In this document: positions 1 to 12,992 of the stretch, piece after piece | How positions within the stretch are numbered: position 1 is the stretch's first letter | Layout: each line of letters starts with the position of its first letter | Notes under the pieces: generated by a model | Seen by the model: only the letters and a program-made list of their open reading frames with translations | What the model was told of the DNA's origin: nothing | Databases searched by the model: none | Virus record (IMG/VR): IMGVR_UViG_2565956709_000005 | Span: 1 to 13,323 of that record | Length of the DNA: 13,323 nucleotides | Direction: 5' to 3' (one strand) | DNA from: a virus | Lineage: Duplodnaviria > Heunggongvirae > Uroviricota > Caudoviricetes | Made by a program: the position numbers and the translations under genes

Positions 1-1131
1 TCAAATGACCAGTTTTTTCCATTCCTTACCGCGTGCGTCGTTGTAAATATCGGTCATTTTTTGATTCGAATGGCCTAGCAAAATTTTGGTATCAACCCCC
101 TGCTCTCTGAACAATCGCTCTGATAAAGATCTCTGCTCATGGAAAGAGGGTGGGGTGCCATTAGCACGCCAGTTGTAATCCACAGAATCCCGGGCTTTTT
201 TAAATGCAACGGTTAATGTTGCTGGCTTAACCATCCCGCCGCGCTTAGCTGTCCCTTTCGCGTGATGGTGGTGCAATAGCCACGGACTAAGAACGCAATC
301 GCGGCAGGATGACACTACATCATCCAGGGTGAGATTTAATTTATCGCAACGCAGAGCCAGAGGGATGGCAATCCGGGTTCCTGTTTTTTGCTGTTCGACA
401 TGAAGATAACCATCCCGGATATCCGAAAATTGCATTTTGCAAATATCTGAAAGGCGCTGGCCTGTCATCAGTGCCAGCAGCATACCGCGCTGTAAAAAGT
501 AACCATCCTTTTCCGCTGCGTTATAAATCATCATCCACTCATCAAAAGTCAGTCGCTGTCTTGATATCCGCACCTGCGGTTTTTTTGCCGATTCTGCAGG
601 GTTAAAGCCTGGCGGGACATCGCCCGTTTGCTGAGCTTCCCGGAAAACATCGATCAGTACTTTCCTGAAAATTTGTCCCATTCTGTTATGTCCTCTGGCC
701 TTGTACTCTTCCAGTACTGATACCACATCTTTTACGGTTATGGCATCTAACGGTCTGGTGCCAAAACGTTCATCAAATACCCTGAGAGGGGCCGCTTTCT
801 GTTTCAGCGTGTTGAGTTTGATCTCGCCGTTTTCATATCTTTCCTGTTGAATTTTTCTGTAATTATTCAGAAAAATGGTAACGGTTGATGAACCGCCGGT
901 ATCACTAATAATTTTCTCCTGCAGACTGAGCATTTGTTCCATTTGCTGCCGGGCAAGACGGCTGTTCGCTTCTGCTGCAATAGTTTCTGCCAGTTTCTGG
1001 TCAATACTGCCGAGACCGTGATTTTTGCCTGTTATGGGATGCCTGTAACGCCAGTAAACTTTGTTATTTCTTTTGTCAAAATACGGAGATAATCCCGGAA
1101 CATCGGTTTTATATTTTCGCGGGCGCGCCAT
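1..1131 (-). CDS. int: Phage tyrosine integrase (lambda Int-like site-specific recombinase), 376 aa, complete; stop codon at positions 1-3
   Basis: Full-length ORF in track. C-terminus ...LLGHSNQKMTDIYNDARGKEWKKLVI resembles the lambda Int catalytic tail (LLGH...Y motif) as I recall it. Overlaps an excisionase-like gene by 23 nt. Family assignment from established knowledge, not a search. Confidence 0.88.
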   Translation of the reverse strand: MARPRKYKTDVPGLSPYFDKRNNKVYWRYRHPITGKNHGLGSIDQKLAETIAAEANSRLARQQMEQMLSLQEKIISDTGGSSTVTIFLNNYRKIQQERYENGEIKLNTLKQKAAPLRVFDERFGTRPLDAITVKDVVSVLEEYKARGHNRMGQIFRKVLIDVFREAQQTGDVPPGFNPAESAKKPQVRISRQRLTFDEWMMIYNAAEKDGYFLQRGMLLALMTGQRLSDICKMQFSDIRDGYLHVEQQKTGTRIAIPLALRCDKLNLTLDDVVSSCRDCVLSPWLLHHHHAKGTAKRGGMVKPATLTVAFKKARDSVDYNWRANGTPPSFHEQRSLSERLFREQGVDTKILLGHSNQKMTDIYNDARGKEWKKLVI

Positions 1132-1357
1132 CTTCCAGTATCCTCTTCAAAGCAGGGTGATCTGTGGCGATCACCTCCGGCTTGTTTACCATTCCGACAA
1201 AGCGAGCTTGCGGATCCACTCGCCAGCGTCTCCCAACTTTTTTGGGGAGAGGAAATATCATTCCGGCTTTAGCGTATTTACTTAACGTACTCGGAGTAGG
1301 GACCGGTTCACTGAATTCCTCTTTTGCCCACTCAGTGAGCAGAATAAGTCTTGCCAT
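1109..1357 (-). CDS. xis: Excisionase / small DNA-binding directionality factor (Xis-like), 82 aa
   Basis: Small basic ORF immediately upstream of and overlapping int on the same strand; motif ...IFPLPKKVGRRWRV... resembles the winged-helix Xis region. Synteny plus motif; not search-verified. Confidence 0.7.
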   Translation of the reverse strand: MARLILLTEWAKEEFSEPVPTPSTLSKYAKAGMIFPLPKKVGRRWRVDPQARFVGMVNKPEVIATDHPALKRILEDGAPAKI

Positions 1358-1421
1358 GAGCGTCGTTCGCTAATCATGGTCGCCGCCACTATAGCTGGTG
1401 GGCAACGACCGGGGTTGAACA

Positions 1422-3893
1422 TTAAAAATCAGCCTGATTCGGGATCAGTTTTTGCCAGATAACTGAAACGTATTTTGCCTGGTAACGGGCGTCATCAAGT
1501 GCATTATGGCGCTCACCTTCGAATGGAATAGCCGTTCTGGCATCGAAGTCTATGGCTTTCCCCAGCTCAACGATTGTGCGTACATCGCGATCGTTGTAGT
1601 AACGCCATGGGCAGGGGATCCCCTGCCGTTCGTATGAACGGCGCAAAATCGTGTTGTCGAAGTTGGCTCCATTTCCCCAGACCTGAACAAAAAATTCGCC
1701 GGAGTTTTCGTCGATAAATTCCCGCAATTGCAGCAGTGCATCATCTAACGGGATTTCATCGGTCAGAATGGCAGATTGCGCCTCCCGTGATTGCTTAAGC
1801 CACCATTTAATGGTGCCACGATCAATGACTCCGCCAGCAGTATCCATATCGATGGTCTTACTAAATTCCGGCCCCATATCTCCGGTTTGCGGATCGAAAA
1901 ATATTGCACCTATTGAGATAAGCGGGGCATCGGGATTTTTTCCCATGGTTTCAAGGTTGATCATCATGTGGTGCCACATTCTGCTGGTGGATGTGATAAC
2001 GTGATGACCGTTCATCGCAATTAAGGGATCTGCCGTCTCGCCAGTTTCACTATCGCTGGCGTGATCCTGAGCGCTACCAGCATTCTCCTTGTGTGGATGT
2101 TCAGCGCCTTCCATTTCCTTCGGATCATTTTCCTGAACTTCAACCTGATTCTCTTCATCGAATGTTTCCTGGTATGTTGCGTCGCCCATTACCGCGCCAC
2201 AATCAGGGCAGTTGCCACCACCGCTTTGACCGCAGGCGGTGCAGACTTTTTCCGGTTCCTGTTGCGCTACTGGCTCAGGTTGTTTCGTTTCTGGCTCGTT
2301 TTGTAACGCATTTGGGCTGTTTTGTTCCGCTTTCTGGCCGTTCTGTTCCGTTTCTTGTTGGTTCTGATTCACTGAATCGCGGGTTTCAATCCCCTTCACC
2401 CATTTCGGATCATTCGGGTCGCTAATCCCTGCAACAAATTCACCACGTGATACAGCAAGCAACTTATTGGCGTCAGGCTGGCTGATATTGGCTGCCTGCA
2501 TAATTTTGTTTACTTCGTCAGCGGTAACTTTTACCGGCTCTGGTTGTGCGATCGTGTCAGATGCACCAGTATTTTGTTGTGAACCTGAGTATGTACTGTT
2601 TTTGCGGGCGAAATATTCTTCTTTCGTGATTTCAGTAGCCCCGGCAGCCAGCGCCTTATCCAGACCAGAAAGTTTGTTTGCGCGACCGTATTTTTCGCCA
2701 TCCTTGTCGGTGAAGAGGAAGTAGAACGGCCCTTCACGCTCTACAGATGGTTCGACTTCCACTTTGCATTCGGTTTTTTCGTTGTCCGGAATTGCCGTTT
2801 CCACTGCATCAGTTTCTGGTACTGGCGACGAGAGAGTATCAGTTGCGCTCTGATTTCTTCCTTCATCTTCAAACACGCCCTTTGTAGTCAGGTATTCAGT
2901 AATGTATTTGTTCAGTGCCACAGGGTCTTTGTGAATGTCGATCGGACGTTCACGGACAAGGCCAAAAATAGTCTGGCGGTCGTAGCGAAGGGCATCAGGC
3001 TGTTTGCGCATTGATGCCGAGATACGCTTCCAGTCTTCGCGGTCGTTGTCGATAACTTCATTTTTTGCCCAGCGATGGATGCTGCCGTCAATGTTTCCGG
3101 CATCCACATCACCAGGCCAGAGAGCGTAGGCCAGTTCGTCATCCAGTGTTTTCCATGTCTGCTTGTATTCGCGATGAATGGCAGCAATGACCGGGCTGAT
3201 TTTTCCTGTTGAATTTTCAGTGTGCTGTTGATTGGTTCTGGCGCGGGCGAGATCAACAACAGACGTGTATTTTCCGGTTTCCTTGCGTTCACCTTCGCGA
3301 CGTTTTTTCCAGATGCGCATCTCTGCCTGAATTTCGGGCCATTTGGCACCAGGCTTACATTTATGCTTAACCCACCCGATGGCATGCAGCTTAAGCTCCG
3401 GATACATGGCGTTAACTTCTGGCATTTTCATCAACGCTTCAACGATATGTCCGTCGAATGTTGCCATGTCTTCCTGCAACAATTCCTGTGCGCTAATAAC
3501 CATATCAACGGTGATGTTTTCACATGTGTCGAACTTAACCATGACAGCGTTCTGTACTTCAGGGGACAGCTTGTCAAAATTGACGTTCATCGGATCGGAT
3601 TCTGGTTCGACCGGAATAAAGGAAGCGGATTCCTCATCCCAGCGGTTTTCCTGCATATATTCAGCATCCCAGGAATCGAGGGCAGGGCGGGGTATACCGG
3701 GTTTATCCTCGCAGACAAGAAATTTATAAGCGCAGTCCTGAGCAGCCGGATAATGTTCCAGGAATTGCCAGTGAAATTTTGCGCGGGCGCGACGTTCATC
3801 ACCGGCTTCAATGGCAGTGGCTACAGCGACGGCACCTTCTTCCTTTATTGCCTGTTCGTCCGGAATGGCGGCGCAAATAAAGACTTTACTCAT
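1422..3893 (-). CDS. Large multidomain exonuclease, RecE / exodeoxyribonuclease VIII-like by position, 823 aa, with C-terminal DnaQ-like (DEDDh-type) 3'-5' exonuclease domain
   Basis: Long ORF with ATG at 3893 and a GAGG about 12 nt upstream. C-terminal ~180 aa carries DnaQ-family-like motifs (...VWGNGANFDNTIL... and ...HNALDDARYQ...). Middle has a Q/E/P-rich low-complexity linker and a CxxC-x9-CxxC zinc-ribbon-like motif (CTACGQSGGGNCPDCG). Segment LLAVSRGEFVAGISDPNDPKWVKG matches my unverified recollection of E. coli RecE. Sits where lambdoid phages carry exo/recE, directly upstream of xis-int. Confidence 0.6.
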   Translation of the reverse strand: MSKVFICAAIPDEQAIKEEGAVAVATAIEAGDERRARAKFHWQFLEHYPAAQDCAYKFLVCEDKPGIPRPALDSWDAEYMQENRWDEESASFIPVEPESDPMNVNFDKLSPEVQNAVMVKFDTCENITVDMVISAQELLQEDMATFDGHIVEALMKMPEVNAMYPELKLHAIGWVKHKCKPGAKWPEIQAEMRIWKKRREGERKETGKYTSVVDLARARTNQQHTENSTGKISPVIAAIHREYKQTWKTLDDELAYALWPGDVDAGNIDGSIHRWAKNEVIDNDREDWKRISASMRKQPDALRYDRQTIFGLVRERPIDIHKDPVALNKYITEYLTTKGVFEDEGRNQSATDTLSSPVPETDAVETAIPDNEKTECKVEVEPSVEREGPFYFLFTDKDGEKYGRANKLSGLDKALAAGATEITKEEYFARKNSTYSGSQQNTGASDTIAQPEPVKVTADEVNKIMQAANISQPDANKLLAVSRGEFVAGISDPNDPKWVKGIETRDSVNQNQQETEQNGQKAEQNSPNALQNEPETKQPEPVAQQEPEKVCTACGQSGGGNCPDCGAVMGDATYQETFDEENQVEVQENDPKEMEGAEHPHKENAGSAQDHASDSETGETADPLIAMNGHHVITSTSRMWHHMMINLETMGKNPDAPLISIGAIFFDPQTGDMGPEFSKTIDMDTAGGVIDRGTIKWWLKQSREAQSAILTDEIPLDDALLQLREFIDENSGEFFVQVWGNGANFDNTILRRSYERQGIPCPWRYYNDRDVRTIVELGKAIDFDARTAIPFEGERHNALDDARYQAKYVSVIWQKLIPNQADF

Positions 3894-3988
3894 TTTGTTT
3901 TAACCTCATTACAGATTTCAGGGTGAACGAATCCCTGCCATTGCTGGCATTTTTAATCCGTTGGTATGGCGTTAATATGGCTGGCGGG

Positions 3989-4177
3989 TTATCCAGCCGG
4001 TATTTCGTTATTCAGGTTCAGCGATACTTTTTTTAACGGGAGGCATTCACCGGGGATTTTTTGTTCGTCCCTTACCTGAATGCAGGATGACTTACTGTCA
4101 TAAATTCCGGTAATCACATTTTGTGGCTCACCCGTTATAAGAAAAACGGTCATCACCAGTGCAAATGCTGAAGTCAC
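3989..4177 (-). CDS. Small protein with N-terminal hydrophobic segment (predicted single transmembrane helix or signal anchor), 62 aa, unknown function
   Basis: ORF in track. N-terminus MTSAFALVMTVFLITG is hydrophobic. Start overlaps the stop of the upstream ORF in an ATGA arrangement (4174-4177). Lies in a visibly AT-rich segment. Confidence 0.5.
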   Translation of the reverse strand: MTSAFALVMTVFLITGEPQNVITGIYDSKSSCIQVRDEQKIPGECLPLKKVSLNLNNEIPAG

Positions 4178-4362
4178 TGCTGTTCTCCGATAATACCAAG
4201 TTCAAGAAGGGCAATTCTGGAAAGTATGGAATTATCATTGAGAAGATAAGGTTCATATTTTCTCATCTTAATGGCATCTTCCGTAAACTCCCGGTTACTG
4301 AGCAGAACACCAATATCAAAACAACCTTCAGACGTATTAACGTTTGGTAATAACGTTTCCAT
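4174..4362 (-). CDS. Small hypothetical protein, 62 aa from ATG 4362 (ORF track gives a 97-aa version from 4467)
   Basis: The internal ATG at 4362 is preceded by GAGGA with a 7-nt spacer; I saw no comparable ribosome-binding site at 4467. Translationally coupled to the downstream 62-aa membrane protein ORF. Confidence 0.45.
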   Translation of the reverse strand: METLLPNVNTSEGCFDIGVLLSNREFTEDAIKMRKYEPYLLNDNSILSRIALLELGIIGEQQ

Positions 4363-4927
4363 TATCGCGTCCTCAACAATGAATTTTGTGATGCGGTGCC
4401 TGGTGCCTCCAGGTGACGTTAACCAGTTAACAATTAACGCCGGATACAGAGAATCCACCCATAACACTGTTTTTGGTTTTAACTGTTCCGCGTGCGCTCA
4501 GCCGCATTCACCACATCACAAAATTCACTTTAAAAAGGGCGGCAGAGCAGTCACGGAGTAAAACTGATACCGCCAAACGTCACCAGAAAATTGATAACAG
4601 AGGGCGTTGCAGCGGAGTTGTCACTTAAGCGTATGGTCAACCTGACAACCCGGTGTCCTCAACGGAGGAAGGAATAACCCCGCCATACTTACCGCCGCGC
4701 CATTTCGCGGAGTGCCACAACCGGAAGCGCACGGTCGAACTAAATTTAACGACACCGTACAGAGAGACCAATTTCGCCGTGCGCTTTCGCTTTATGCCCT
4801 GACTTTTCAGGGACATATCCTTTCAGTAAACTGTCAGTGCCGGATGTTCACCCGTGTCCGGCGCACGCACTCCACCTGACCCGTGGAGAACTCCTTAATT
4901 ACCAACCTTAGCTTCGTTGGTTAGCTA

Positions 4928-5146
4928 TTAACGCGGGTATGTAACCATTCTGGCAATGCTTAATGCCGCTGCTTTTTCCAGCCTGGTGATATCCTGCTCC
5001 AGAGCGGACAGATTTTCAGCCTGCTTAGTCCTGGCTTCATTGGCCCATTTCAGATCCTGCGCTGCATTAATTTTCTGGCGCATCCACTCATAAAGTTCAT
5101 CATCGGTATAGTCTGGCGCGATGATGACGGGTTCTCGTTTCTGCAT
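4928..5146 (-). CDS. Small early-left protein, 72 aa, predicted helical; unknown function (positional analogue of kil/cIII-type small early genes)
   Basis: ORF in track; same strand and operon as neighbours. No recognisable motif. Confidence 0.5.
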   Translation of the reverse strand: MQKREPVIIAPDYTDDELYEWMRQKINAAQDLKWANEARTKQAENLSALEQDITRLEKAAALSIARMVTYPR

Positions 5147-5175
5147 ACTGATTCCTCGCGGTGCTGCTTCGCTTA

Positions 5176-5304
5176 TCAGCCGTTAGATTTTGCCGAGCTG
5201 GAAAGCGCCTGTTTAAACTCACTGAAGCTGAGAGCTTCTTCGCCTTCGGCAAGGCCTTCGAAGTATTCTTCGTAAGCCTTTTCCATGATTGTGTCGAAAT
5301 CCAT
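5176..5304 (-). CDS. Small acidic protein, 42 aa from ATG 5304 (56 aa if ATG 5346 is used); absent from the ORF track (below 60 aa)
   Basis: Hand-translated on the minus strand: MDFDTIMEKAYEEYFEGLAEGEEALSFSEFKQALSSSAKSNG. The ATG sits 2 nt after the stop of the upstream 78-aa ORF, with GGTGAG just upstream. Confidence 0.35.
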   Translation of the reverse strand: MDFDTIMEKAYEEYFEGLAEGEEALSFSEFKQALSSSAKSNG

Positions 5305-5305
5305 A

Positions 5306-5542
5306 TCACTCACCTGAGTTTCTTTCCAGCCAGCGACGGGCACCATTTTCGGTTTTAAACGTTTTGCTTTTGGTATACGTCATTGCGGTGAACGTGCCGT
5401 CCTGGTTGGGGAACACGCCACATACCAGAGATTCGCTGTTGCCAAGATCGATAGTATCCATGCTGACCTCATTTCCCCTTAACGCCGGGGGAGCGGAACA
5501 AAAACCTGCTGCATAGTTATTAAAGTTGAACCCTGCCGTCAT
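5306..5542 (-). CDS. First gene of the leftward early operon, 78 aa, unknown function
   Basis: ORF in track. GAGG lies 8 nt upstream of the ATG on the minus strand. About 95 nt downstream of the predicted P_L -10 element. Confidence 0.55.
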   Translation of the reverse strand: MTAGFNFNNYAAGFCSAPPALRGNEVSMDTIDLGNSESLVCGVFPNQDGTFTAMTYTKSKTFKTENGARRWLERNSGE

Positions 5543-5642
5543 GTTCTTACGCCTCGGGCTGGCTACTTAACCCCTGACCACTGCCTGGTAACTCGAGGTA
5601 TTGCCCTGTATTGTGTGGGACGGGATGGGTTGGTATGGGAAA

Positions 5643-5686
5643 ACTATAGGAAATGCCTAATTACTTGTCAATAGGCTATGCCTAAT
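5643..5686 (-). promoter_or_regulatory. Predicted leftward early promoter P_L with two operator sites (O_L)
   Basis: On the minus strand: -35 TTGACA (5671..5666), 17-bp spacer, -10 TATAGT (5648..5643). Two 17-bp dyad sites of the form ATTAGGC-N3-GCCTAAT at 5670-5686 and 5645-5661, centres 25 bp apart. Shares a 23-bp exact inverted repeat with the O_R region. Confidence 0.5.
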
Positions 5687-5779
5687 AATTTGGGCGCGAC
5701 CTAATAGGTGATGGTTTGTGGGAGAGGTAGTAGGAGTTAACTAACGGGAACTAGGAATTTCCCGTCGGACCATATAAGT

Positions 5780-6256
5780 TTAAGTTCCTGTCTTGGTGAT
5801 GTTCTGGCTTTTCCGTTTTGATTCTTGATTTTTCAGATAGTTAGCTACCTTCATTTCCATTGCGGCAATGTAGGCGCGAACGTCATGATCAACCCAACTA
5901 GGCTCCGTAGCATTTCCAGATAAGAGGAAAGCCACAATTGCTCTTTTTTCATCAGAGGCGGCTTGATAAAGGCTGTTTATGTCTAAAAGTTCACTTTTTG
6001 TATCTGAAGTGGATGGGGTTGGTATGGGGTATTCGTTAAGCCCCCAATGCTCTGGACCAACCACATCAGAAAAGAAACGCCATAGTTCTGGAAGTTTGTC
6101 TTTACTTATCGAACCTTTCTTAATCCAGTCATGGATTGATGGTGGTTGGACTTTGAAATGACGTGCGATTTCCGCCTTTGATTTGACGGCTCCTGATGCA
6201 ATTTTTTTGTTAATGGCCTGCTCAATCGCTCGGCCTAAGTCTTTACCACTAAGCAT
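5780..6256 (-). CDS. racR: Prophage repressor with HTH DNA-binding domain, RacR-like, 158 aa
   Basis: ORF in track, divergent from a cro/ydaS-like gene. HTH-like segment SKAEIARHFKVQPPSIHDWIKKG. Resemblance to E. coli Rac RacR (also 158 aa) is from memory, not a search. Confidence 0.75.
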   Translation of the reverse strand: MLSGKDLGRAIEQAINKKIASGAVKSKAEIARHFKVQPPSIHDWIKKGSISKDKLPELWRFFSDVVGPEHWGLNEYPIPTPSTSDTKSELLDINSLYQAASDEKRAIVAFLLSGNATEPSWVDHDVRAYIAAMEMKVANYLKNQESKRKSQNITKTGT

Positions 6257-6283
6257 TGCTTAATAGTCTCCTATGCGCATCGC

Positions 6284-6353
6284 GTTAGGCAATCCCTACT
6301 CTCGATGTATTAGGCATAGCCTATTGACAATTGCATTAGGCTAAGCCTAATAT
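6284..6353 (+). promoter_or_regulatory. Predicted rightward early promoter P_R with operator sites (O_R) between the repressor and cro-like genes
   Basis: -35 TTGACA (6324-6329), 18-bp spacer, -10 TAATAT (6348-6353). Perfect 17-bp palindrome ATTAGGCTAAGCCTAAT at 6335-6351, near-palindrome ATTAGGCATAGCCTATT at 6309-6325, and a degenerate third site at 6284-6300. Site centres are 25-26 bp apart. Confidence 0.55.
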
Positions 6354-6380
6354 TGTTGCGTGTTTTTTGGAGTTCATTCG

Positions 6381-6704
6381 ATGAAAAAAGATAACTATTC
6401 ATTCAAACGAGCTTGTGCTGTTGTCGGTGGGCAATCAGCAATGGCTAGGCTTTTAGGTGTATCTCCTCCAAGCGTAAATCAATGGATCAAAGGTGTACGT
6501 CAGTTGCCTGCTGAGAGATGTCCTGCGATTGAACGAGCAACAAAAGGTGGTGTCCTGTGTGAAGAACTTCGTCCTGATGTTGATTGGACATACTTACGAC
6601 GCTCGTCATGTTATTCGCAGAATATGTCGATGAAGCAACCAAATGACGAAAACGATCATACCCGAAGCATCAAGAGGCAAATGATTCATGAAAATCAAAC
6701 ATGA
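6381..6704 (+). CDS. ydaS: Cro-like HTH regulator, YdaS-like, 107 aa from ATG 6381
   Basis: GGAG lies 9 nt upstream of ATG 6381 (track starts at GTG 6360). HTH segment GGQSAMARLLGVSPPSVNQWIKG. Start matches my recollection of Rac YdaS (MKK.NYSFK.ACAVVGGQSAMARLLGV...), unverified. Confidence 0.7.
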   Translation: MKKDNYSFKRACAVVGGQSAMARLLGVSPPSVNQWIKGVRQLPAERCPAIERATKGGVLCEELRPDVDWTYLRRSSCYSQNMSMKQPNDENDHTRSIKRQMIHENQT

Positions 6705-7113
6705 GCACATCCGCATGGCGATGAATGCTTGGGCATACCCTGATGGTGAGAAAGTTCCTGCAGCTGAAATAGCCCGGACTTATTTCGAACTGGGGATGAC
6801 GTTCCCTGAACTGTACGACGACAGCCATCCGGAAGCCCTGGCCCGTAATACACAGAAAATTTTCCGTTGGCTGGATAAAGACACCCCTGATGCTGTTGAA
6901 AAAATTCAGGCTCTGTTACCGGCGATCGAAAAGGCAATGCCGCCTCTGCTGGTGGCCCGTATGCGCAGTCACAGCTCTGAGTATTACCGGGAGATTGTCG
7001 AACGGCGGGATCGGCTGGTGAAGGATGTCGACGATTTTGTTGCGTCAGCGGTTGTTTTGTATGACCAGATGAATCGCGGCGGCCCGGCAGGGAATGCTGT
7101 GGTGATGCACTAA
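6688..7113 (+). CDS. ydaT: YdaT-like protein (toxic partner of YdaS in Rac, kept silent by RacR), 141 aa
   Basis: ORF in track; overlaps ydaS-like stop by 17 nt; begins MKIKHEHI as I recall for YdaT. Mostly synteny-based. Confidence 0.6.
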   Translation: MKIKHEHIRMAMNAWAYPDGEKVPAAEIARTYFELGMTFPELYDDSHPEALARNTQKIFRWLDKDTPDAVEKIQALLPAIEKAMPPLLVARMRSHSSEYYREIVERRDRLVKDVDDFVASAVVLYDQMNRGGPAGNAVVMH

Positions 7114-7135
7114 AAGCACGGTGTTCGGGGGTTTT

Positions 7136-8098
7136 ATGAGCAGCAAGCTTCATGGTCTTGTCTGGGAAGGGTGCGCCTTCACCGGCATGATCTTATCCAG
7201 GGTGGCGGTTATGGCCCGTCTTGCAGACTACAGCAATGACGAGGGCGTGTCATGGCCTGCCATTGAAACTATCCGGCGTCAGATCGGTGCAAGAAGTGAA
7301 TCCACAGTGAAATCGGCTATTGCAGAACTGGCGAAAGAGGGCTGGCTGACGAAGGAAGAGCGTAAGGTCGGTGGGCGTAATGTAAGCAATATCTATCGAC
7401 TTAATGTGGAAAAACTCGAAGCAGCTGCGGCGGCGGCGCGTGAGTCATATAAACCGAAAAGAAAAATTAGCCCGGCAAAAAATGACCCGTTAACAGTTGA
7501 CCCGTCAAATATTGACCCCTCAACGGTTGACCCGTCAAATTTTGATGGATCAACTGTTGATAAAAAACTGCCGATTAGGGGGGCGATGATTGACCCCGAT
7601 CCGTCAGTATTAAAACCTGATCCGTCAGATAAAAGATCTTCTTGTCCGGACGCTTCGCAACCGGACCCGCAGACGGCTGAACAGGATTTTTTAACCCGAC
7701 ACCCTGACGCGGTTGTGTTCAGTGCGAAAAAACGCCAGTGGGGAAGTCAGGAAGATTTGGTGTGCGCACAGTGGATCTGGGGACGAATCGTGAGTCTTTA
7801 CGAGCAGGCGGCCAGCTATGATGGCGAGATCACTAGACCGAAAGAACCCAACTGGACAGCATGGGCCAATGACGTTCGCACAATGCGGATGCTGGATGGC
7901 AGAACTCACAGACAAATTTGTGAAATGTTTGGGCGTCTCCAGCGGGATTCGTTCTGGGTAAAAAACATCATGAGTCCGGCAAAACTCCGGGAAAAATGGG
8001 ATGAACTGGTTATCCGCCTGGGGCGTTCGCCTGCGCAGCGTTGCGTGAATCACATTTCTGAACCGGACACTGAAATTCCGCCGGGCTTCAGGGGGTAA
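7136..8098 (+). CDS. Phage replication initiation protein (N-terminal winged-helix HTH, O-like), 320 aa from ATG 7136, with ori iterons inside the coding sequence
   Basis: N-terminal HTH-like region (...WPAIETIRRQIGARSESTVKSAIAELAKEGWL...). Central DP(S/L)N/TVD peptide repeats are encoded by the DNA iterons. Position after the cro/cII-like genes matches lambda O. ATG 7136 is preceded by a G-rich stretch; the track's GTG 7121 is the alternative start. Confidence 0.7.
   Translation: MSSKLHGLVWEGCAFTGMILSRVAVMARLADYSNDEGVSWPAIETIRRQIGARSESTVKSAIAELAKEGWLTKEERKVGGRNVSNIYRLNVEKLEAAAAAARESYKPKRKISPAKNDPLTVDPSNIDPSTVDPSNFDGSTVDKKLPIRGAMIDPDPSVLKPDPSDKRSSCPDASQPDPQTAEQDFLTRHPDAVVFSAKKRQWGSQEDLVCAQWIWGRIVSLYEQAASYDGEITRPKEPNWTAWANDVRTMRMLDGRTHRQICEMFGRLQRDSFWVKNIMSPAKLREKWDELVIRLGRSPAQRCVNHISEPDTEIPPGFRG
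7482..7553. repeat. Candidate replication origin: five 12-bp dyad iterons (TTGACCCGTCAA-like) at 15-bp phasing
   Basis: Copies at 7482 (ATGACCCGTTAA), 7497 (TTGACCCGTCAA), 7512 (TTGACCCCTCAA), 7527 (TTGACCCGTCAA) and 7542 (TTGATGGATCAA), each TTGAC-NN-GTCAA-like. Followed by an A/T-rich stretch (7555-7570) and more TGACCCC / CCGTCAG repeats to about 7628. Confidence 0.6.
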
Positions 8099-8138
8099 GT
8101 GTTAATTTCTGGTCATGAGGTAATTTTCAGGAGGGCTT

Positions 8139-8561
8139 GTGGCAAAAGTTTTTACACAAGAAGAGCGGGAAAAAATTAAAGGGCAGGTTGTTGAACTCGT
8201 ACGCCAGAGTGGGCGCGAGACGTTACGACAACTGGAAACTAAAACTGGGGCAACAAGATATCTGATGAGCGTTCTGGCCAGAGAGCTGGTTGCCAGCGGC
8301 GATGTATACAACTCCGGCTACGGGTTATTCCCCTCTGAACAGGCGCGTAAGGACTGGCAAAACGCCCGCAAAAAACTCTCGAGGGCAAAGGTGAAGAAAC
8401 CTGCTGTGGTTGATCCGGACCTTATCTGGTCATCACCTGACGGAGAAATACGTCGCTACGACAGTCGCCTAAACATAATCTGTCGCGAGTGCCGGAAGAG
8501 TGAAGCTATGCAGCGTGTACTGGCTTTCTATCAGGGTAATTTTCAGGAGGCGGTACTGTGA
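8139..8561 (+). CDS. Hypothetical protein, 140 aa, GTG start
   Basis: AGGAGG lies 4 nt upstream of GTG 8139. The 16-nt ribosome-binding-site module GGTAATTTTCAGGAGG occurs just upstream and again at the gene's 3' end. Confidence 0.55.
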   Translation: MAKVFTQEEREKIKGQVVELVRQSGRETLRQLETKTGATRYLMSVLARELVASGDVYNSGYGLFPSEQARKDWQNARKKLSRAKVKKPAVVDPDLIWSSPDGEIRRYDSRLNIICRECRKSEAMQRVLAFYQGNFQEAVL

Positions 8562-8618
8562 GTGAAATTAGCTATCAGGCTTCAATTACCGCTGGCATTC
8601 GCATCAAAGGAGAGGAGC

Positions 8619-8975
8619 ATGGAAATAAAACCAGAGGATGAGTTAAGCAATATCGTTTTATTTCCGGTAAAAGAGGATGACCCTCGTAATCAGGTTAATT
8701 TTCTTTATGAGCCATCGGAAAGACCATATTGTCATCACGCCTCTGTCCGGGTTGACGAAAAAGAGCGTCAGGTCCGCTGTAAAATCTGCGGTGCAGTTGT
8801 GGAGCCATTTGACTGGATGCTCTCTGTGGCGAAAAGAGAAACCAGACTGGCAGATGATGTAAGGCTCTTGCGTCAAGAGGAGCGGGAAAGGCGAAAAAAT
8901 ATAGAAAAGCTAATTCAGATTGAGCGTAACGCGAAAGCGCGGATACGCAGGGCGACAAAATCCAGAACTGAATAA
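8619..8975 (+). CDS. Hypothetical zinc-ribbon-like protein, 118 aa from ATG 8619 (track version starts at GTG 8562)
   Basis: Strong ribosome-binding site AAGGAGAGGAG directly upstream of ATG 8619. Cys/His cluster YCHHASV...CKICG. Basic coiled-coil-like C-terminus. Confidence 0.55.
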   Translation: MEIKPEDELSNIVLFPVKEDDPRNQVNFLYEPSERPYCHHASVRVDEKERQVRCKICGAVVEPFDWMLSVAKRETRLADDVRLLRQEERERRKNIEKLIQIERNAKARIRRATKSRTE

Positions 8976-9068
8976 TTAAATTTAGCTCTGTTAAAAATTT
9001 AATCCTTAACCGGAGGGATTTCTGCACCCTCAGAACATCAGGAGGCCGCCCGAAAGGGCGGTAGTTAA

Positions 9069-9251
9069 ATGCGAAAGTTTAAAATAATTATTGAAACGGG
9101 AATAGCCGGTGGAGATTTCGAGGATGAATTCGAAGTGGATGATGATGCGACGCCTGATGAAATACATGACGAAGCAAAAGATATTTTCTTTAACTACTGC
9201 AATTACTCATATCACGAAATAAAAGACGAAGAGGAAGAACAAAATGGCTGA
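9069..9251 (+). CDS. Very acidic small protein, 60 aa (20 Asp/Glu against 5 Lys/Arg), unknown function
   Basis: ORF in track. AGGAGG (9040-9045), then a GC hairpin (9046-9061), then ATG 9069. Composition counted by hand. Confidence 0.5.
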   Translation: MRKFKIIIETGIAGGDFEDEFEVDDDATPDEIHDEAKDIFFNYCNYSYHEIKDEEEEQNG

Positions 9252-9420
9252 TTTTGGTTCAACTAAATACAACGTCAGTTTTGAAGAATGGCATGAACTG
9301 TTAATGGACTATGCAGAGTTACGTGGTGGCAGTGCTGCTGATGCTGAAGCATGGCGTGATGATTATGAAGCAGGAAAAACTCCGGTCGAAGCATATTGTG
9401 ATGAGTGGGGCGATGAATGA
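9244..9420 (+). CDS. Acidic small protein, 58 aa (16 Asp/Glu against 4 Lys/Arg); absent from the ORF track
   Basis: Hand-translated: MADFGSTKYNVSFEEWHELLMDYAELRGGSAADAEAWRDDYEAGKTPVEAYCDEWGDE. Start overlaps the upstream stop (ATGGCTGA) and its stop overlaps the next ATG (ATGA). Confidence 0.45.
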   Translation: MADFGSTKYNVSFEEWHELLMDYAELRGGSAADAEAWRDDYEAGKTPVEAYCDEWGDE

Positions 9421-9733
9421 GCGAGGTTAATTATCAGGAAGGGCATGAAACGGCGGGGCAAGCAAAAACAGTGGCATGGCGATATCGCTACGTGAAAAAA
9501 AAGGCGTTACGGACTTTCAGGGGAAGTAGTGGTCTGGTGACTGGAAATATGTACCGAAAAAAGAGGATTGTAACGACAGGCCGAACTATGAAATTCAGGC
9601 CTTATTCACTGCCCCGCCAGTCCCGGTTACATCAGAAGAACTGGTTAAAGCTGTGCACTTTTATGAACAACTAAAACGCGAAAATCCACCAGCATCCGGA
9701 AACCTGATTACAGATTCCCAGATAAGGCAATGA
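9417..9733 (+). pseudogene. Disrupted or recoded gene: translationally coupled start at 9417, A8 run with A_AAA_AAG heptamer, protein-like coding in the -1 frame downstream, in-frame TAG at 9527-9529
   Basis: Frame 0 from 9417 is open to 9674 but its C-terminal half is compositionally odd (K/R-rich). The -1 frame from 9530 to 9733 reads protein-like (WSGDWKYVPKKEDCNDRPNYEIQALFTAPPVPVTSEELVKAVHFYEQLKRENPP...) but has no start codon and follows a TAG. Slippery heptamer at 9497-9503. Confidence 0.3.
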
Positions 9734-9903
9734 GCTACCTGGCGCAGAACGGGCTGATAAGTATGGGGAATGTTTTACGATGAATATTTAGACTAAAGAG
9801 TTTGTAACGCTATGTAAGTGATTTTTTCTGGTTTAGATATTTATATATCCGGCCAAATTGAGGTGTGTTTAAATGTAATTGCACATTGATTGTAGGAGGA
9901 ATA

Positions 9904-10083
9904 ATGAAAAACGCATTGCAGTTTTTGTTTGTTGCGTTCTGGTTGTTCGTATCATGTATGCCCATCATCTTCACAGCAAGGTATATGGAAAAAGTTGATG
10001 TTTTGATATTAATATTTGGATATATAAATGCCCTTTTTTTAGGGGTGTTCATGGCGGTCATGTGCATTGAATACTGGCGGTAA
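9904..10083 (+). CDS. Small hydrophobic protein, 59 aa, two predicted transmembrane helices; accessory (moron-like) gene in an AT-rich island
   Basis: AGGAGG (9894-9899) with a 4-nt spacer to ATG 9904 (track lists a longer version from 9865). Sequence MKNALQFLFVAFWLFVSCMPIIFTARYMEKVDVLILIFGYINALFLGVFMAVMCIEYWR. Surrounding 9780-10080 is visibly AT-rich. Confidence 0.55.
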   Translation: MKNALQFLFVAFWLFVSCMPIIFTARYMEKVDVLILIFGYINALFLGVFMAVMCIEYWR

Positions 10084-10138
10084 ATACAGCGAACGCCATT
10101 GGTTTAGTTGGATATTTACTGTGCCGGACAAAAACGGT

Positions 10139-10166
10139 TTGCGGGGAAATCTTAGTTAAGTAGAAT
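10139..10166 (+). promoter_or_regulatory. Predicted promoter of the hok/mok mRNA
   Basis: -35 TTGCGG (10139-10144), 16-bp spacer, -10 TAGAAT (10161-10166). The predicted start near 10173 coincides with a 5' element (10171-10184) complementary to the mRNA 3' region (10547-10561). Confidence 0.45.
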
Positions 10167-10221
10167 GACTGCGGGTGCTTGAGGCTATCTGTCTCAGGCA
10201 TGAACACCAAAAGGCAGATAG

Positions 10222-10295
10222 AGAAAAGCCCCAGTTAACATTACGCGTCCTGCAAGACGCTTAACATTAATCTGAGGCCATATCTATGCTCTACA
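10222..10295 (-). ncRNA. sok: Predicted Sok-like antisense RNA covering the mok ribosome-binding site and start codon
   Basis: Inferred from hok-locus architecture. Minus-strand terminator-like structure (hairpin GCGUC...GACGC nested in a GGCCUCAG/CUGGGGCU stem, then UUUUCUCU) ends near 10222. Weak candidate promoter on the minus strand (-35 TTGCCT 10329..10324, -10 TAACCT 10306..10301). Boundaries approximate. Confidence 0.35.
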
Positions 10296-10498
10296 CACGT
10301 AGGTTAGCCTCTTACGTGCCGAAAGGCAAGGAGAAGCAGGCTATGAAGCAGCAAAAGGCGATGCTAATCGCCCTGATCGTCATCTGTTTAACCGTCATAG
10401 TGACGGCACTGGTAACGAGGAAAGACCTCTGCGAGGTACGAATCCGAACCGGCCAGACGGAGGTCGCTGTCTTCACAGCTTACGAACCTGAGGAGTAA
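10286..10498 (+). CDS. mok: Mok-like reading frame (in-frame N-terminal extension of Hok), 70 aa
   Basis: ORF in track. Starts 19 codons upstream of hok in the same frame, an arrangement I recall for MokC/HokC. GAGG lies 8 nt upstream of ATG 10286. Confidence 0.6.
   Translation: MLYTRRLASYVPKGKEKQAMKQQKAMLIALIVICLTVIVTALVTRKDLCEVRIRTGQTEVAVFTAYEPEE
10343..10498 (+). CDS. hok: Hok/Gef-family type I toxin (small membrane-depolarising peptide), 51 aa, HokD/RelF-like
   Basis: Sequence MKQQKAMLIALIVICLTVIVTALVTRKDLCEVRIRTGQTEVAVFTAYEPEE has the Hok/Gef signature (N-terminal transmembrane helix, ...LVTRKDLCEV.IRTG..EVA.F.AYE...). AAGGAG lies 10 nt upstream. Confidence 0.88.
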   Translation: MKQQKAMLIALIVICLTVIVTALVTRKDLCEVRIRTGQTEVAVFTAYEPEE

Positions 10499-10565
10499 GA
10501 GACCAGGCGGGGGAGAATCCCTCGCCACCTCTGATGTGTCAGGCATCCTCAACGCACCCGCACTT

Positions 10566-10592
10566 AACCCGCTTCGGCGGGTTTTGTTTTTT
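10566..10592 (+). terminator. Rho-independent terminator of the hok mRNA
   Basis: AACCCGC-TTCG-GCGGGTT stem-loop followed by TTTTGTTTTTT. Confidence 0.8.
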
Positions 10593-10664
10593 CCTGGCAT
10601 TCTGGTTTACAATTCGCACGTCAGCCTGAACACCTGACACCTGCTGCGCCAGCAGAGAAAACAG

Positions 10665-10937
10665 ATGGCGCACAAAACCAAATTTCACAATTCTGATACC
10701 GACCTTGCCATCCGGCATGAGCGGCGTTCACACGCATTTAAAACCGACTGGTACCAACACCCACCATGTACTGAAGAACAGGCCGAATGGCTGATTCATA
10801 ACTACCGCAGACGTGGATATGAGTTTAGGAAAGCCCTCACCCTCGATTATCGTCACTGGATAATCTACGTCAGACTCCCTTATTCCGAACGCCCACCGCG
10901 TCCGTCCCGCACATTCCAGCAACGGATCTGGAGGTAA
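10665..10937 (+). CDS. Hypothetical protein, 90 aa, translationally coupled to the downstream HNH-motif protein
   Basis: ORF in track. Its 3' end contains the GGAGG that serves the next gene's GTG start. The antisense ORF here is S/T/R/P-rich and less plausible. Confidence 0.5.
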   Translation: MAHKTKFHNSDTDLAIRHERRSHAFKTDWYQHPPCTEEQAEWLIHNYRRRGYEFRKALTLDYRHWIIYVRLPYSERPPRPSRTFQQRIWR

Positions 10938-10938
10938 C

Positions 10939-11997
10939 GTGCGGGTATTACTTCGATCTGTTCCGGTACCGGAACTTGGGCTGGTGGTCCTTAAGCCTGG
11001 TCGTGAATCCATGCAGGTATTCCGCAGCGGTCGTGTACTGGTGGAGCCGGAACCGAAAAGCATGCGCGGTCTGCCGTCCGGAGTCGTTCCTGCCGTTCGC
11101 CAGCCATTGGCGGAGGATAAATCACTACTGCCATTTTTCAGCGATGAGCGGGTGATTCGTGCTGCTGGCGGTGCTGGTGCGCTGTCTGACTGGCTGTTAC
11201 GCCACGTTAAATCCTGCCAGTGGCCTCATGGTGACTATCATCACAGTGAAATCGTCATACATCGTTACGGTACCGGCGCGATGGTGTTGTGCTGGCACTG
11301 CGACAACCAGCTGCGTGACCAGACCTCCGAATCACTCGGGCAACTTGCTCATCAAAACCTGTCAGCATGGATGATTGACGTCATACGCCATGCAGTGAAT
11401 GGCACGCAGGAGCGGGAATTATCGCTGGCTGAATTGTGCTGCTGGGCTTCTGTAAATGATGTAGTGGATGCCATGACCGAAAATATGGCGCGTCGAATCC
11501 TGAAGCTTCCGGGTGAAAAAATCCGCTCAGTATACCGCGAGAGCGACATCGTACCGGGAGAGCAGACCGCCATCAGCATACTGAAGCAGCGCACAAAAAA
11601 TATTGCGCCGTTGCCTCACGCCCACCAGCAACAGAATCCACCACAGGAAAAGACGGTGGTCAGCATTGCCGTTGATCCGGAGTCACCGGCTCAGTATCTC
11701 CAGCGCCAGAAACCACAACGGGAAGAGATGCCTGTATACACGCGCTGGGTAAAAACGCAGAAATGCATGACGTGTGGCAATCAGGCAGATGATCCGCATC
11801 ACATCATTGGTCATGGACTGGGAGGGATGGGAACAAAGGCTGATGATTTGTTTGTTATTCCGCTGTGCCGTAAATGCCATAGCGAACTACACGCCGGGGT
11901 AAAAGATTTTGAAGAAAAACACGGCAGCCAGCTGTTGTTGCTGATTCGTTTTTTAATGCACGCGAGAAATTCGGGTGTCCTGAAGTGGAAAGCATGA
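10939..11997 (+). CDS. Nin-region protein with C-terminal HNH-type zinc-finger nuclease motif (DUF968-like), 352 aa
   Basis: C-terminus CMTCGNQADDPHHIIGHGLGGMG...LCRKCHSELH has a CxxC...HH...CxxCH...H layout. GGAGG lies 6 nt upstream of GTG 10939. Sits directly upstream of rusA. DUF968 label is from memory. Confidence 0.65.
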   Translation: MRVLLRSVPVPELGLVVLKPGRESMQVFRSGRVLVEPEPKSMRGLPSGVVPAVRQPLAEDKSLLPFFSDERVIRAAGGAGALSDWLLRHVKSCQWPHGDYHHSEIVIHRYGTGAMVLCWHCDNQLRDQTSESLGQLAHQNLSAWMIDVIRHAVNGTQERELSLAELCCWASVNDVVDAMTENMARRILKLPGEKIRSVYRESDIVPGEQTAISILKQRTKNIAPLPHAHQQQNPPQEKTVVSIAVDPESPAQYLQRQKPQREEMPVYTRWVKTQKCMTCGNQADDPHHIIGHGLGGMGTKADDLFVIPLCRKCHSELHAGVKDFEEKHGSQLLLLIRFLMHARNSGVLKWKA

Positions 11998-12363
11998 ATG
12001 ACTGAACGCATAGAATTTGTTTTGCCTTACCCGCCAACGGTGAACACTTACTGGCGACGTCGTGGCAGCACATATTTTGTATCAAAAGCCGGTGAGCGTT
12101 ATCGCCGTGATGTGGCGCTTATTGTTCGCCAGCAGCGGCTGAAATTAAACCTGTCCGGAAGGCTGGCGATAAAGATTATTGCAGAGCCACCGGATAAACG
12201 TCGTCGTGACCTGGACAATATCCTGAAAGCACCACTGGATGCGCTGACGCATGCCGGACTTCTCATAGACGACGAGCAGTTTGATGAAATCAATATTGTG
12301 CGCGGTCAGCGCGTTCCTGGGGGGCGGCTGGGCGTGAAGATTTACAAAATTGAGAGTGAGTGA
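11998..12363 (+). CDS. rusA: RusA Holliday-junction resolvase, 121 aa
   Basis: Motifs ...LPYPPTVNTYWRR... and ...PDKRRRDLDNILKAPLDAL... match the RusA family as I know it. Start overlaps the upstream stop (TGAATG). Confidence 0.88.
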   Translation: MTERIEFVLPYPPTVNTYWRRRGSTYFVSKAGERYRRDVALIVRQQRLKLNLSGRLAIKIIAEPPDKRRRDLDNILKAPLDALTHAGLLIDDEQFDEINIVRGQRVPGGRLGVKIYKIESE

Positions 12364-12917
12364 TCGTAAATATGATATATCCGGAAATTACAGGCAAAAG
12401 CGGCGAGCATTTACGTCTAAAAACGCTGGAAGCCGTCTGGATCCAGGGGAAATTACGGATGTGGGGGCGTTGGTCGTACATAGGTGGTGGCAAACCAGGA
12501 AATATGTTCAATCAGTTGCTGGCATCCAAAACACTTACAAAAACTGCGATCAATGAAGCTCTGCGCAGAATAAAAAAATCAGGGATTGATAAAACTGAGC
12601 TGGAAGCGTTTTTGCGTGAGATGATCAACAGCAAGCAAAAGAGCGGGCTGGCTTATTGTACTGATGCCGAGGCGTTATGTATCGATCGGGTAATTAGTAA
12701 AGTGTTGGCAGAGCATCCGGGATTGATTTGTATCCTCCGACAAAGATATGAAGGGCTGGGAATGAGCAAGCTGAAAATGGCAGAACAGTTAAAAAAGAAT
12801 CACCCTGACTGGAGCCTGAAAACTTGTAGAAATCGCATTGATGTTTGGTTGGCGATGGCTGAAACCATGCTTTTCCTTCCAATGTGCGTGGCACTTCGGT
12901 GCTTTTCTGATAACTGA
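12360..12917 (+). CDS. Putative late-gene antiterminator (Q-like) by position, 185 aa; start may be ATG 12372 rather than GTG 12360
   Basis: ORF in track. Follows rusA as Q does in lambdoid phages and is followed by a promoter-like sequence. No Q-specific motif recognised, so the function is positional inference. Confidence 0.4.
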   Translation: MIVNMIYPEITGKSGEHLRLKTLEAVWIQGKLRMWGRWSYIGGGKPGNMFNQLLASKTLTKTAINEALRRIKKSGIDKTELEAFLREMINSKQKSGLAYCTDAEALCIDRVISKVLAEHPGLICILRQRYEGLGMSKLKMAEQLKKNHPDWSLKTCRNRIDVWLAMAETMLFLPMCVALRCFSDN

Positions 12918-12992
12918 TGATAGAAGTGCATCAGCTATCAATCTTGTTGACGTTCATCAAGGTCTGGACAATACTTACGTTAAGTTCCAACA

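Follow-up and report, generated by a model that had tools for sequence, protein, structure and literature searches.

Positions 10139-10592 of the window, i.e., of the whole 13,323-nt stretch of DNA analysed here, very probably hold a type I toxin-antitoxin cassette of the hok/mok/sok kind that is intact and belongs to the hokD/hokW clade. As a moron, this cassette occupies the nin region of a lambdoid prophage, which in close relatives is integrated next to ompW; it lies between an O-like replication gene and a Q-like antiterminator gene and would operate through a mechanism of the plasmid R1 type. The product of the Hok open reading frame scored 82.9 bits against Pfam HOK_GEF (PF01848; cut-off 22), the 70-aa mok frame was assigned to PHROG 251 ('MokW-like host killing'), and Rfam RF01794 ("sok") matched 10173-10348 end to end with 117 bits (gathering score 59). 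The Rfam match lies on the sense strand and stops at the hok AUG, so that this family in effect models the hok leader. The complete locus with an intact tac/fbi fold-back between the 5' and 3' ends, proposed in an earlier note on this DNA, is thus supported by these three assignments, by 92% nucleotide identity to the characterised hokW-sokW locus (PMC8621323) and by conservation in 42 loci; indeed, every item listed in that note was found at or near the position given for it. What we infer are transcription, processing and toxicity in the window's context, together with the biological role.

The finding itself is already known: publications cover the family, the way in which its RNA folds and its occurrence in prophages, and annotations across E. 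coli name this very gene hokD. In a recent survey, ~80% of Enterobacteriaceae genomes contained Hok, with enrichment in prophages (bioRxiv 10.1101/2025.08.07.668861). The value of the window is accordingly modest. It reveals what the K-12 hokD (relF) locus looked like in its complete ancestor, before truncation; it shows that the cassette changes its place among prophages as one unit, delimited by the promoter and by fbi or the terminator; and it provides a natural copy, in the nin region, for asking what hok/sok does for a prophage.

Prophage setting and transcription signals

Positions 1-12992 of the window are 99.95% identical to an ompW-adjacent prophage in E. coli EC24. The genes follow the order integrase, excisionase, exonuclease, dicB, DicF (4537-4588), a RacR-type repressor, YdaS/YdaT-like genes and the O-like replication gene, and then small ORFs, hok, phrog_1212, DUF968/HNH, RusA and the Q-like antiterminator. 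The cassette shares its strand with the genes from O to Q, and the terminator scan found no terminator-like site upstream of it between 8900 and 10139. The analysis of the strand of neighbouring genes was crude (ORF-based, with many loci in a common context) and gives a weak hint only.

Related loci were collected from one genome per species (53 loci) and from viral contigs (80 loci), and 42 sequences that were mutually less than 95% identical, ranging from Escherichia to Photorhabdus and Erwinia, formed alignment A2. In a set of 134 loci, the part homologous to the window mostly started at 10120-10175 and mostly ended at 10550-10599, which indicates that the cassette behaves as a discrete unit in many contexts. 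Of 5426 complete E. coli genomes, 3442 have at least 80% of a 541-nt stretch around the cassette (10100-10640), with hokD as the RefSeq label of the gene; the cassette also occurs in Stx phages (mokW/hokW), in 'PPompW' prophages ('gef') and in some plasmids.

The putative hok/mok promoter (10139-10166, + strand), as read from the sequence, would comprise a -35 box TTGCGG (10139-10144), a 16-nt spacer and a -10 box TAGAAT (10161-10166). The -35 box is poor, with three matches out of six, and the -10 box is aligned with TATAAT of K-12 hokC and TATGAT of the R1-type plasmid locus (alignment A1). A simple consensus promoter/terminator scan detected neither this promoter nor the Sok promoter and Sok terminator described below, and these assignments therefore rest on homology to hokC/sokC, hokW-sokW and R1-type loci. 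From the tac 5' end to the T run of the terminator, the full-length hok mRNA is predicted to span ~420 nt (10171-10592, + strand). Its intrinsic terminator (10566-10592, + strand; hairpin stem 10566-10583 followed by the T run) was retrieved by the terminator scan as the sole + strand terminator-like site in 8900-11000. A GC-rich hairpin in the 3' UTR (10506-10526, + strand) was present in all folds and conserved in alignment A2; by analogy with R1 (PMC9841398), it presumably protects the 3' end of the processed (truncated) mRNA.

Fold-back and folding pathway of the hok mRNA

The translational activator element tac, at the mRNA 5' end (10171-10184, + strand), reads GCGGGTGCTTGAGG and would pair in turn with 10191-10201, with the upstream complementary box ucb and with the fold-back inhibitory element fbi (10547-10561, + strand), which reads CCTCAACGCACCCGC. 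Together, tac and fbi form 14 bp with C10553 bulged and a duplex energy of -27.3 kcal/mol, in line with the single-bulge fold-back described in the earlier note. Folding of the RNA, suggested there as a check, placed this pairing in the minimum-energy structure computed for 10172-10592 (-170.7 kcal/mol; z = -8.15 relative to dinucleotide shuffles). Across the whole 13-kb window, fbi was moreover the top + strand partner for the 5' 16-mer.

The pairing was also found well beyond the window. The tac box GGGYGCUUGAGRC is kept in nearly all related loci, its best partner in the 3' UTR lies 44-50 nt past the stop codon in most of those examined, and loci with tac GGGCGC...GAGAC have the partner GUCUC...GCGCCC. 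In alignment A2 (42 loci), 82% of tac/fbi cells were paired, versus 39-58% when the 3' partner was slid by one to three columns. Such fixed-column counting understates the fbi pairing in the second half-helix, with Photorhabdus-type loci lacking the bulge and being shifted by one column; a register-free duplex search showed that these loci do pair tac with fbi. Pair 6/420 was U-A in 26 sequences, C-G in 11 and U-G in three, i.e., a compensatory change from U-A to C-G.

Short GC-rich complements can arise by chance, and the region might on that account be merely a hok ORF with unrelated flanks; nothing further was counted in favour of this reading. It is contradicted by the 3' UTR shuffles (dinucleotide-preserving), none of which reached -27.3 kcal/mol in 2000 trials (mean -17.4, sd 2.4), by the constant offset from the stop codon in most relatives, by the U-A to C-G change and by the end-to-end Rfam leader match. 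Chance complementarity was rejected on the shuffles, the offset conservation and the compensatory change, and we consider its probability to be practically nil.

The remaining RNA elements were defined after the published plasmid R1 model (PMC9841398), namely the tac/fbi pairing, ucb lying over the mok Shine-Dalgarno (SD) sequence, a metastable 5' hairpin and, after 3' trimming, stems between tac and ucb and between the SD and the downstream complementary box dcb. All of them could be placed on the window sequence, which has a long hairpin at 10185-10221 and a second one at 10234-10271 (+ strand). In the nascent transcript, the tac partner within the metastable hairpin would be 10191-10201 (+ strand), which pairs with 10175-10185 when 5' fragments with ends at 10205 or 10225 are folded to minimum energy. 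This hairpin was paired in 97% of cells in alignment A2 (42 loci), with four compensatory pairs that include tac position 6, a position which also covaries with fbi. Such coupled covariation of the metastable hairpin and fbi at a shared tac position was reportedly described by Gultyaev, Franch and Gerdes in 1997 (reference 12 of PMC9841398).

The ucb element, AAGCCCC (10226-10232, + strand), a presumed anti-SD, would have the mok SD as its partner in the closed form and tac (10173-10180) as its partner in the open one, according to the Rfam consensus structure and the full-length fold; in the latter, GCCCC (10228-10232) covers GAGGC (10274-10278). According to the Rfam structure, dcb, GCCUC (10307-10311, + strand), would pair with the same GAGGC in the open form. 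Across the 42 loci, ucb was 99.3% paired and invariant and dcb was 100% paired and nearly invariant; the tac/ucb and mok-SD/dcb stems being invariant, covariation is uninformative on both. The open-form helices of the Rfam consensus were 87% paired in these loci, with 14 compensatory pairs. Compensatory changes were thus seen in the fold-back, in the metastable hairpin and in three open-form helices, and this conservation of RNA elements across genera points to selection on the folding pathway.

For the full-length RNA, the closed fold reached -170.7 kcal/mol versus -158.1 kcal/mol when the open (tac/ucb) form was forced, a gap of 12.6 kcal/mol. The corresponding values for an RNA ending at 10535 were -136.3 and -135.5 kcal/mol, a gap of 0.8 kcal/mol. 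This fall in the cost of tac/ucb pairing upon truncation indicates that removal of fbi makes the open form accessible. In unconstrained folds of truncated RNAs ending at 10530-10545, the tac/ucb stem was absent, the metastable hairpin and the ucb/SD pairing being kept instead; refolding to the open form after 3' trimming is thus a step that we infer from near-equal energies and from the R1 model.

Reading frames and predicted antisense RNA

The mok reading frame (10286-10498, + strand) opens at ATG 10286, 8 nt downstream of the mok SD, GAGG (10274-10277, + strand), which is sequestered by 10228-10232 in the full-length fold and pairs with dcb in the open form. It comprises 70 codons, of which the first 19 precede hok in the same frame, in agreement with the in-frame Mok extension reported in the earlier note. 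Annotations of mokC/hokC in K-12 and of MokW in VT2-Sakai show this arrangement as well. Among 108 distinct related loci, mok was in frame in 86, was a 19-codon frame ending in an AUGA overlap with the hok start in 13 and was a long out-of-frame reading frame in eight; whatever its frame, it reached the hok start codon in 107 of the 108. Such a layout agrees with experiments from which it was concluded that translation of mok has to extend as far as the hok SD, but not past the hok start codon (PMC9841398). In the R1-type plasmid locus, mok was aligned in frame with hok (A1), a result that is restricted to this locus and is not extended to R1 itself, whose mok may be out of frame.

The hok SD, AAGGAG (10328-10333, + strand), is partly paired in the full-length fold and precedes the toxin ORF (10343-10498, + strand), which encodes a 51-aa Hok peptide of the HOK_GEF family with 100% identity to K-12 HokD. 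Disruption of the transmembrane segment or of the Cys residues in this copy, which had been named as evidence against a working toxin, was not found: hydropathy indicates a single N-terminal transmembrane helix at about residues 6-24, and both Cys15 and Cys30 are present. The 52-aa Hok of R1-type loci is 42% identical to the window peptide. This 52-aa reference, found at 100% in plasmids, is one that we take to be R1 Hok.

Toward the C-terminus, the window Hok carries Tyr47, as do HokC, HokD and HokE, where HokA and HokB have Cys; this residue is normal for its clade. The position was reported as a TadA editing site, with 6% editing in hokD, and full toxicity of the clade may depend on such low-level Tyr-to-Cys RNA editing (PMC12214031). 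A recent study (bioRxiv 10.1101/2025.08.07.668861) took as its controls Hok peptides already characterised as toxic, and HokD is one of those it lists.

On the opposite strand, the putative Sok promoter (10301-10329, - strand) has a -35 box TTGCCT (10329 to 10324) that overlaps the hok SD, a 17-nt spacer and a -10 box TAACCT (10306 to 10301). It was assigned by identity to the hokW-sokW locus of Sakai prophage 5, with which the window shares 10299-10345 without a difference. Replacement of this same -10 box in sokW (primers YO-421 and YO-422) yielded a promoter-less construct ('pro-less') in which HokW toxicity was unmasked (PMC8621323). The predicted Sok RNA, of ~71-77 nt (10218-10296, - strand), would run from 10294 to 10218 if its ends follow those of the annotated K-12 sokC, as transferred through alignment A1. 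Its predicted fold consists of a free 5' tail of ~17 nt across the mok AUG region, a long hairpin (10279 to 10229) and a UUUU tract, which is the plan of other Sok RNAs; sokW is reportedly complementary to the leader over 71 nt (PMC8621323). A candidate antisense RNA with a terminator-like structure over the mok start, as previously proposed, is therefore upheld as far as sequence can tell, with a promoter identical to that of sokW, ends that fit sokC, and a fold with a 5' tail and a terminator hairpin.

Relatives, mechanism and biological role

The closest characterised relative is hokW-sokW (mokW) of Sakai prophage 5/VT2-Sakai (PMC8621323), which is 92% identical to the window from the promoter to fbi (10140-10569). 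The tac, fbi and Sok promoter sequences are identical in the two loci, both of which reside in lambdoid prophages, mokW likewise has 70 codons in frame, and 47 of 51 residues (92%) are the same in HokW and the window Hok. The C-terminal residues nevertheless differ (VDYESEK in HokW against TAYEPEE), as do several bases in the mok start region. Moreover, hokW sits 3' of ea22-like and DUF551 genes, whereas the window copy lies between O and Q, and its homology to the window stops just past fbi, so that hokW is without the terminator hairpin found at 10566-10583.

In K-12, hokD (relF) of the Qin cryptic prophage encodes the identical Hok peptide, with a hok SD, ORF, 3' UTR hairpin, fbi and terminator nearly identical to those of the window; both copies belong to lambdoid prophages with dicF and dicB. 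Unlike the window copy, K-12 hokD follows relBE, diverges 5' of ~10327 (A1) and is without promoter, tac, metastable hairpin, ucb, mok start and Sok promoter. Because it matches the window only from just before the hok SD onward, K-12 hokD is a truncated derivative with an orphan fbi. The identity of the two peptides could suggest that the window cassette is a decayed remnant of the same kind, with the toxin ORF kept and its regulation lost. This we regard as very improbable and have rejected: tac, ucb, mok and the Sok promoter, all missing from K-12 hokD, are present in the window (A1), and within 10171-10598 no window allele is rare in the clade except the synonymous C10364, which leaves every mapped RNA element free of rare alleles. 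The earlier note's view that the locus looks functional rather than decayed thus stands at the level of sequence only, in that its Hok is that of the toxic HokD, its Sok promoter is that of sokW and its mapped RNA elements hold no rare allele.

A second K-12 locus, hokC (gef)/mokC/sokC, resembles the window in having mok in frame, with a stop codon common to mok and hok, in its tac box, which is the same, and in the ends of sokC, which map to window positions 10294 and 10218. It differs by a Sok-target hairpin whose length departs by 18 nt (shorter) from that of the window, by an adjoining chromosomal IS186 and by a different 3' UTR. The R1-type IncF hok/sok locus (PMC9841398) has tac, fbi, ucb, dcb, the metastable hairpin, a 19-codon pre-hok mok and a Sok promoter over the hok SD, all in the same order as the window. 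By contrast with the window copy, it is plasmid-borne, with demonstrated post-segregational killing, and at the nucleotide level the conserved boxes are the only parts that can be aligned.

From a mechanistic point of view, the steps of the plasmid R1 model, mapped element by element onto the window, would run as follows. A weak promoter would give rise to a stable mRNA of ~420 nt, whose 5' tac would be kept in the metastable hairpin during synthesis. In the finished RNA, tac would pair with fbi near the 3' end and ucb would cover the mok ribosome-binding site, a closed form in which neither mok nor hok would be translated and to which Sok would be unable to bind. Slow 3' trimming would then take off the terminator and fbi, so that tac would pair with ucb and expose the mok SD/dcb target hairpin. 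As long as Sok is present, it would bind around the mok start, giving a duplex that would be destroyed, presumably through RNase III cleavage. Sok, made from an opposite-strand promoter inside mok, would be short-lived; once it had decayed, mok would be translated through to the hok start, and the Hok produced would enter the inner membrane and kill or lyse the cell.

With regard to the biological role, assistance to lysis and to the release of phage upon induction is the best-supported one, in view of the 92%-identical hokW-sokW, from which the only experimental result for a close relative comes. The latter was indeed shown to be a toxin-antitoxin pair of which both RNAs are made from the prophage, and killing upon loss of Sok was demonstrated with a Sok promoter mutant (PMC8621323). 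After mitomycin C treatment, sokW RNA disappeared in a RecA-dependent manner and HokW was then found in the inner membrane; the presence of hokW-sokW led to an earlier growth arrest and to a phage yield about two-fold above that of the deletion mutant (PMC8621323). Addiction and the exclusion of other phages are possible roles as well, although the prophage stabilisation or abortive infection put forward in the earlier note would be conjectural.

Earlier tests of chromosomal hok loci revealed no post-segregational killing (summarised in bioRxiv 10.1101/2025.08.07.668861), and the window cassette could likewise be structurally complete but physiologically silent, carried along without providing addiction, defence or help with lysis. 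The weak hok -35 box would agree with such silence, as would the HokD-type Tyr that replaces the second periplasmic Cys of HokA and HokB, given that hokD was edited at only 6% (PMC12214031). We nonetheless consider silence unlikely, since all RNA elements are conserved across genera, several of them with compensatory changes, since at least 80% of the cassette stretch is retained in nearly two thirds of the complete E. coli genomes (3442/5426) and since hokW-sokW, which its prophage expresses, shows toxicity when Sok is missing and alters both lysis timing and phage yield (PMC8621323).

In a further proposal, prophage induction itself would be the trigger. Read-through transcription would run into the convergent Sok promoter and silence it, hok transcripts extended at their 5' end would have no free tac 5' end, and the hok terminator would also serve the nin region as a terminator before Q. 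This proposal, which we hold as tentative and unlikely, is suggested by the sense orientation of the cassette in the early rightward operon, between the O-like and Q-like genes. If true, it would explain why sokW RNA is lost, in a RecA-dependent manner, once the prophage is induced, and the module would then be a lysis timer coupled to induction and not an addiction module.

Boundaries of the cassette and the K-12 derivative

When the window was compared with 134 related loci, homology breakpoints were concentrated at two places, namely at about 10120-10175, just 5' of the hok promoter, and at 10550-10599, just 3' of either fbi, the 3' partner of the mRNA 5' end, or the terminator. The hok/mok/sok cassette thus behaves as a mobile unit with an exchangeable terminator. 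In Sakai prophage 5 (Sp5), homology ends after fbi and is followed by a different 3' end.

The hokD region of E. coli K-12, in the Qin prophage (L002, 5020-5500, minus strand), was aligned with window 10327-10592. The hok Shine-Dalgarno sequence, the ORF, the 3' hairpin and the terminator were common to both, and K-12 hokD retained an orphan fbi (CCTCAACGCACCCGC), while tac (the mRNA 5' end), ucb (the anti-Shine-Dalgarno box), mok and the Sok promoter were gone. The breakpoint in K-12 was located directly 5' of the hok Shine-Dalgarno sequence and 3' of relE. Near-identical hokD-type sequences were also found on very short contigs in assemblies of non-enterobacterial species, namely Acinetobacter idrijaensis (L017, a 275-nt contig), Xanthomonas pisi (L022, a 431-nt contig) and a metagenome-assembled genome (L055). 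These three matches most likely reflect contamination of the assemblies by E. coli or phage DNA.

The hok leader, the mok frame and the Tyr47 codon

The match to Rfam RF01794 ("sok antitoxin") was located on the sense strand, at window 10173-10348 (+), beginning at the 5' end of the mRNA and running as far as the hok AUG; it is therefore a marker of the hok leader and not of the antisense RNA. Within this leader, the region equivalent to window 10286-10345 was surveyed in 108 related loci (L003-L135), and the mok frame was found to differ, relative to hok, between close relatives. It was in frame with hok in 86 of the 108, corresponded to a 19-codon mok ending in an AUGA overlap in 13, and was long and out of frame in 8. 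The hok start codon was reached by the mok frame in 107/108 loci, and it is the passage of ribosomes, rather than the Mok peptide, that seems to be the target of selection.

Further downstream, the Tyr47 codon of hok (10481-10483) lies within UUACGAA (10480-10486), a copy of the anticodon-loop motif of tRNA-Arg(ACG) edited by TadA, and sits between the two arms of a short stem (10476-10478 / 10488-10490). UACG at this codon was invariant in all of the 42 aligned loci (less than 95% identical to each other). Editing of A10482, were it to occur, would result in Tyr47Cys. In hokD, 6% editing was reported, with hokC and hokE also edited at the same position (PMC12214031).

Neighbouring ORFs and other prophage modules

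Upstream of the cassette, a small ORF (9865-10083, +, ATG at 9904) was located in an AT-rich stretch (GC 0.35-0.37) and encodes a product of 59-72 aa with two hydrophobic segments. It has no RefSeq annotation, Pfam and PHROG searches gave no match, and 98-100% identity was found in only three phage records, labelled "hornerin" or hypothetical. This ORF may be a small membrane-protein moron. On the opposite strand, the 59-aa "hypothetical protein" WP_001112736.1, annotated by RefSeq in the relative L001 (window 10539-10718, minus strand), is probably a spurious gene call, because its frame shares sequence with fbi, with the hok terminator and with the beginning of the gene that follows.

The prophage also contains the dicBF cell-division inhibitor operon, with the DicF sRNA at 4537-4588 (-) (RF00039, 76.7 bits) and dicB, ydfC and ydfB adjoining it as in Qin. 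At 5780-7113, according to the annotation of L001, a RacR-type repressor gene diverges from two other genes, one for an HTH protein and one for a YdaT-family "toxin". This segment is the RacR/YdaS/YdaT-like immunity region and provides the same prophage with a second, potentially toxic module.
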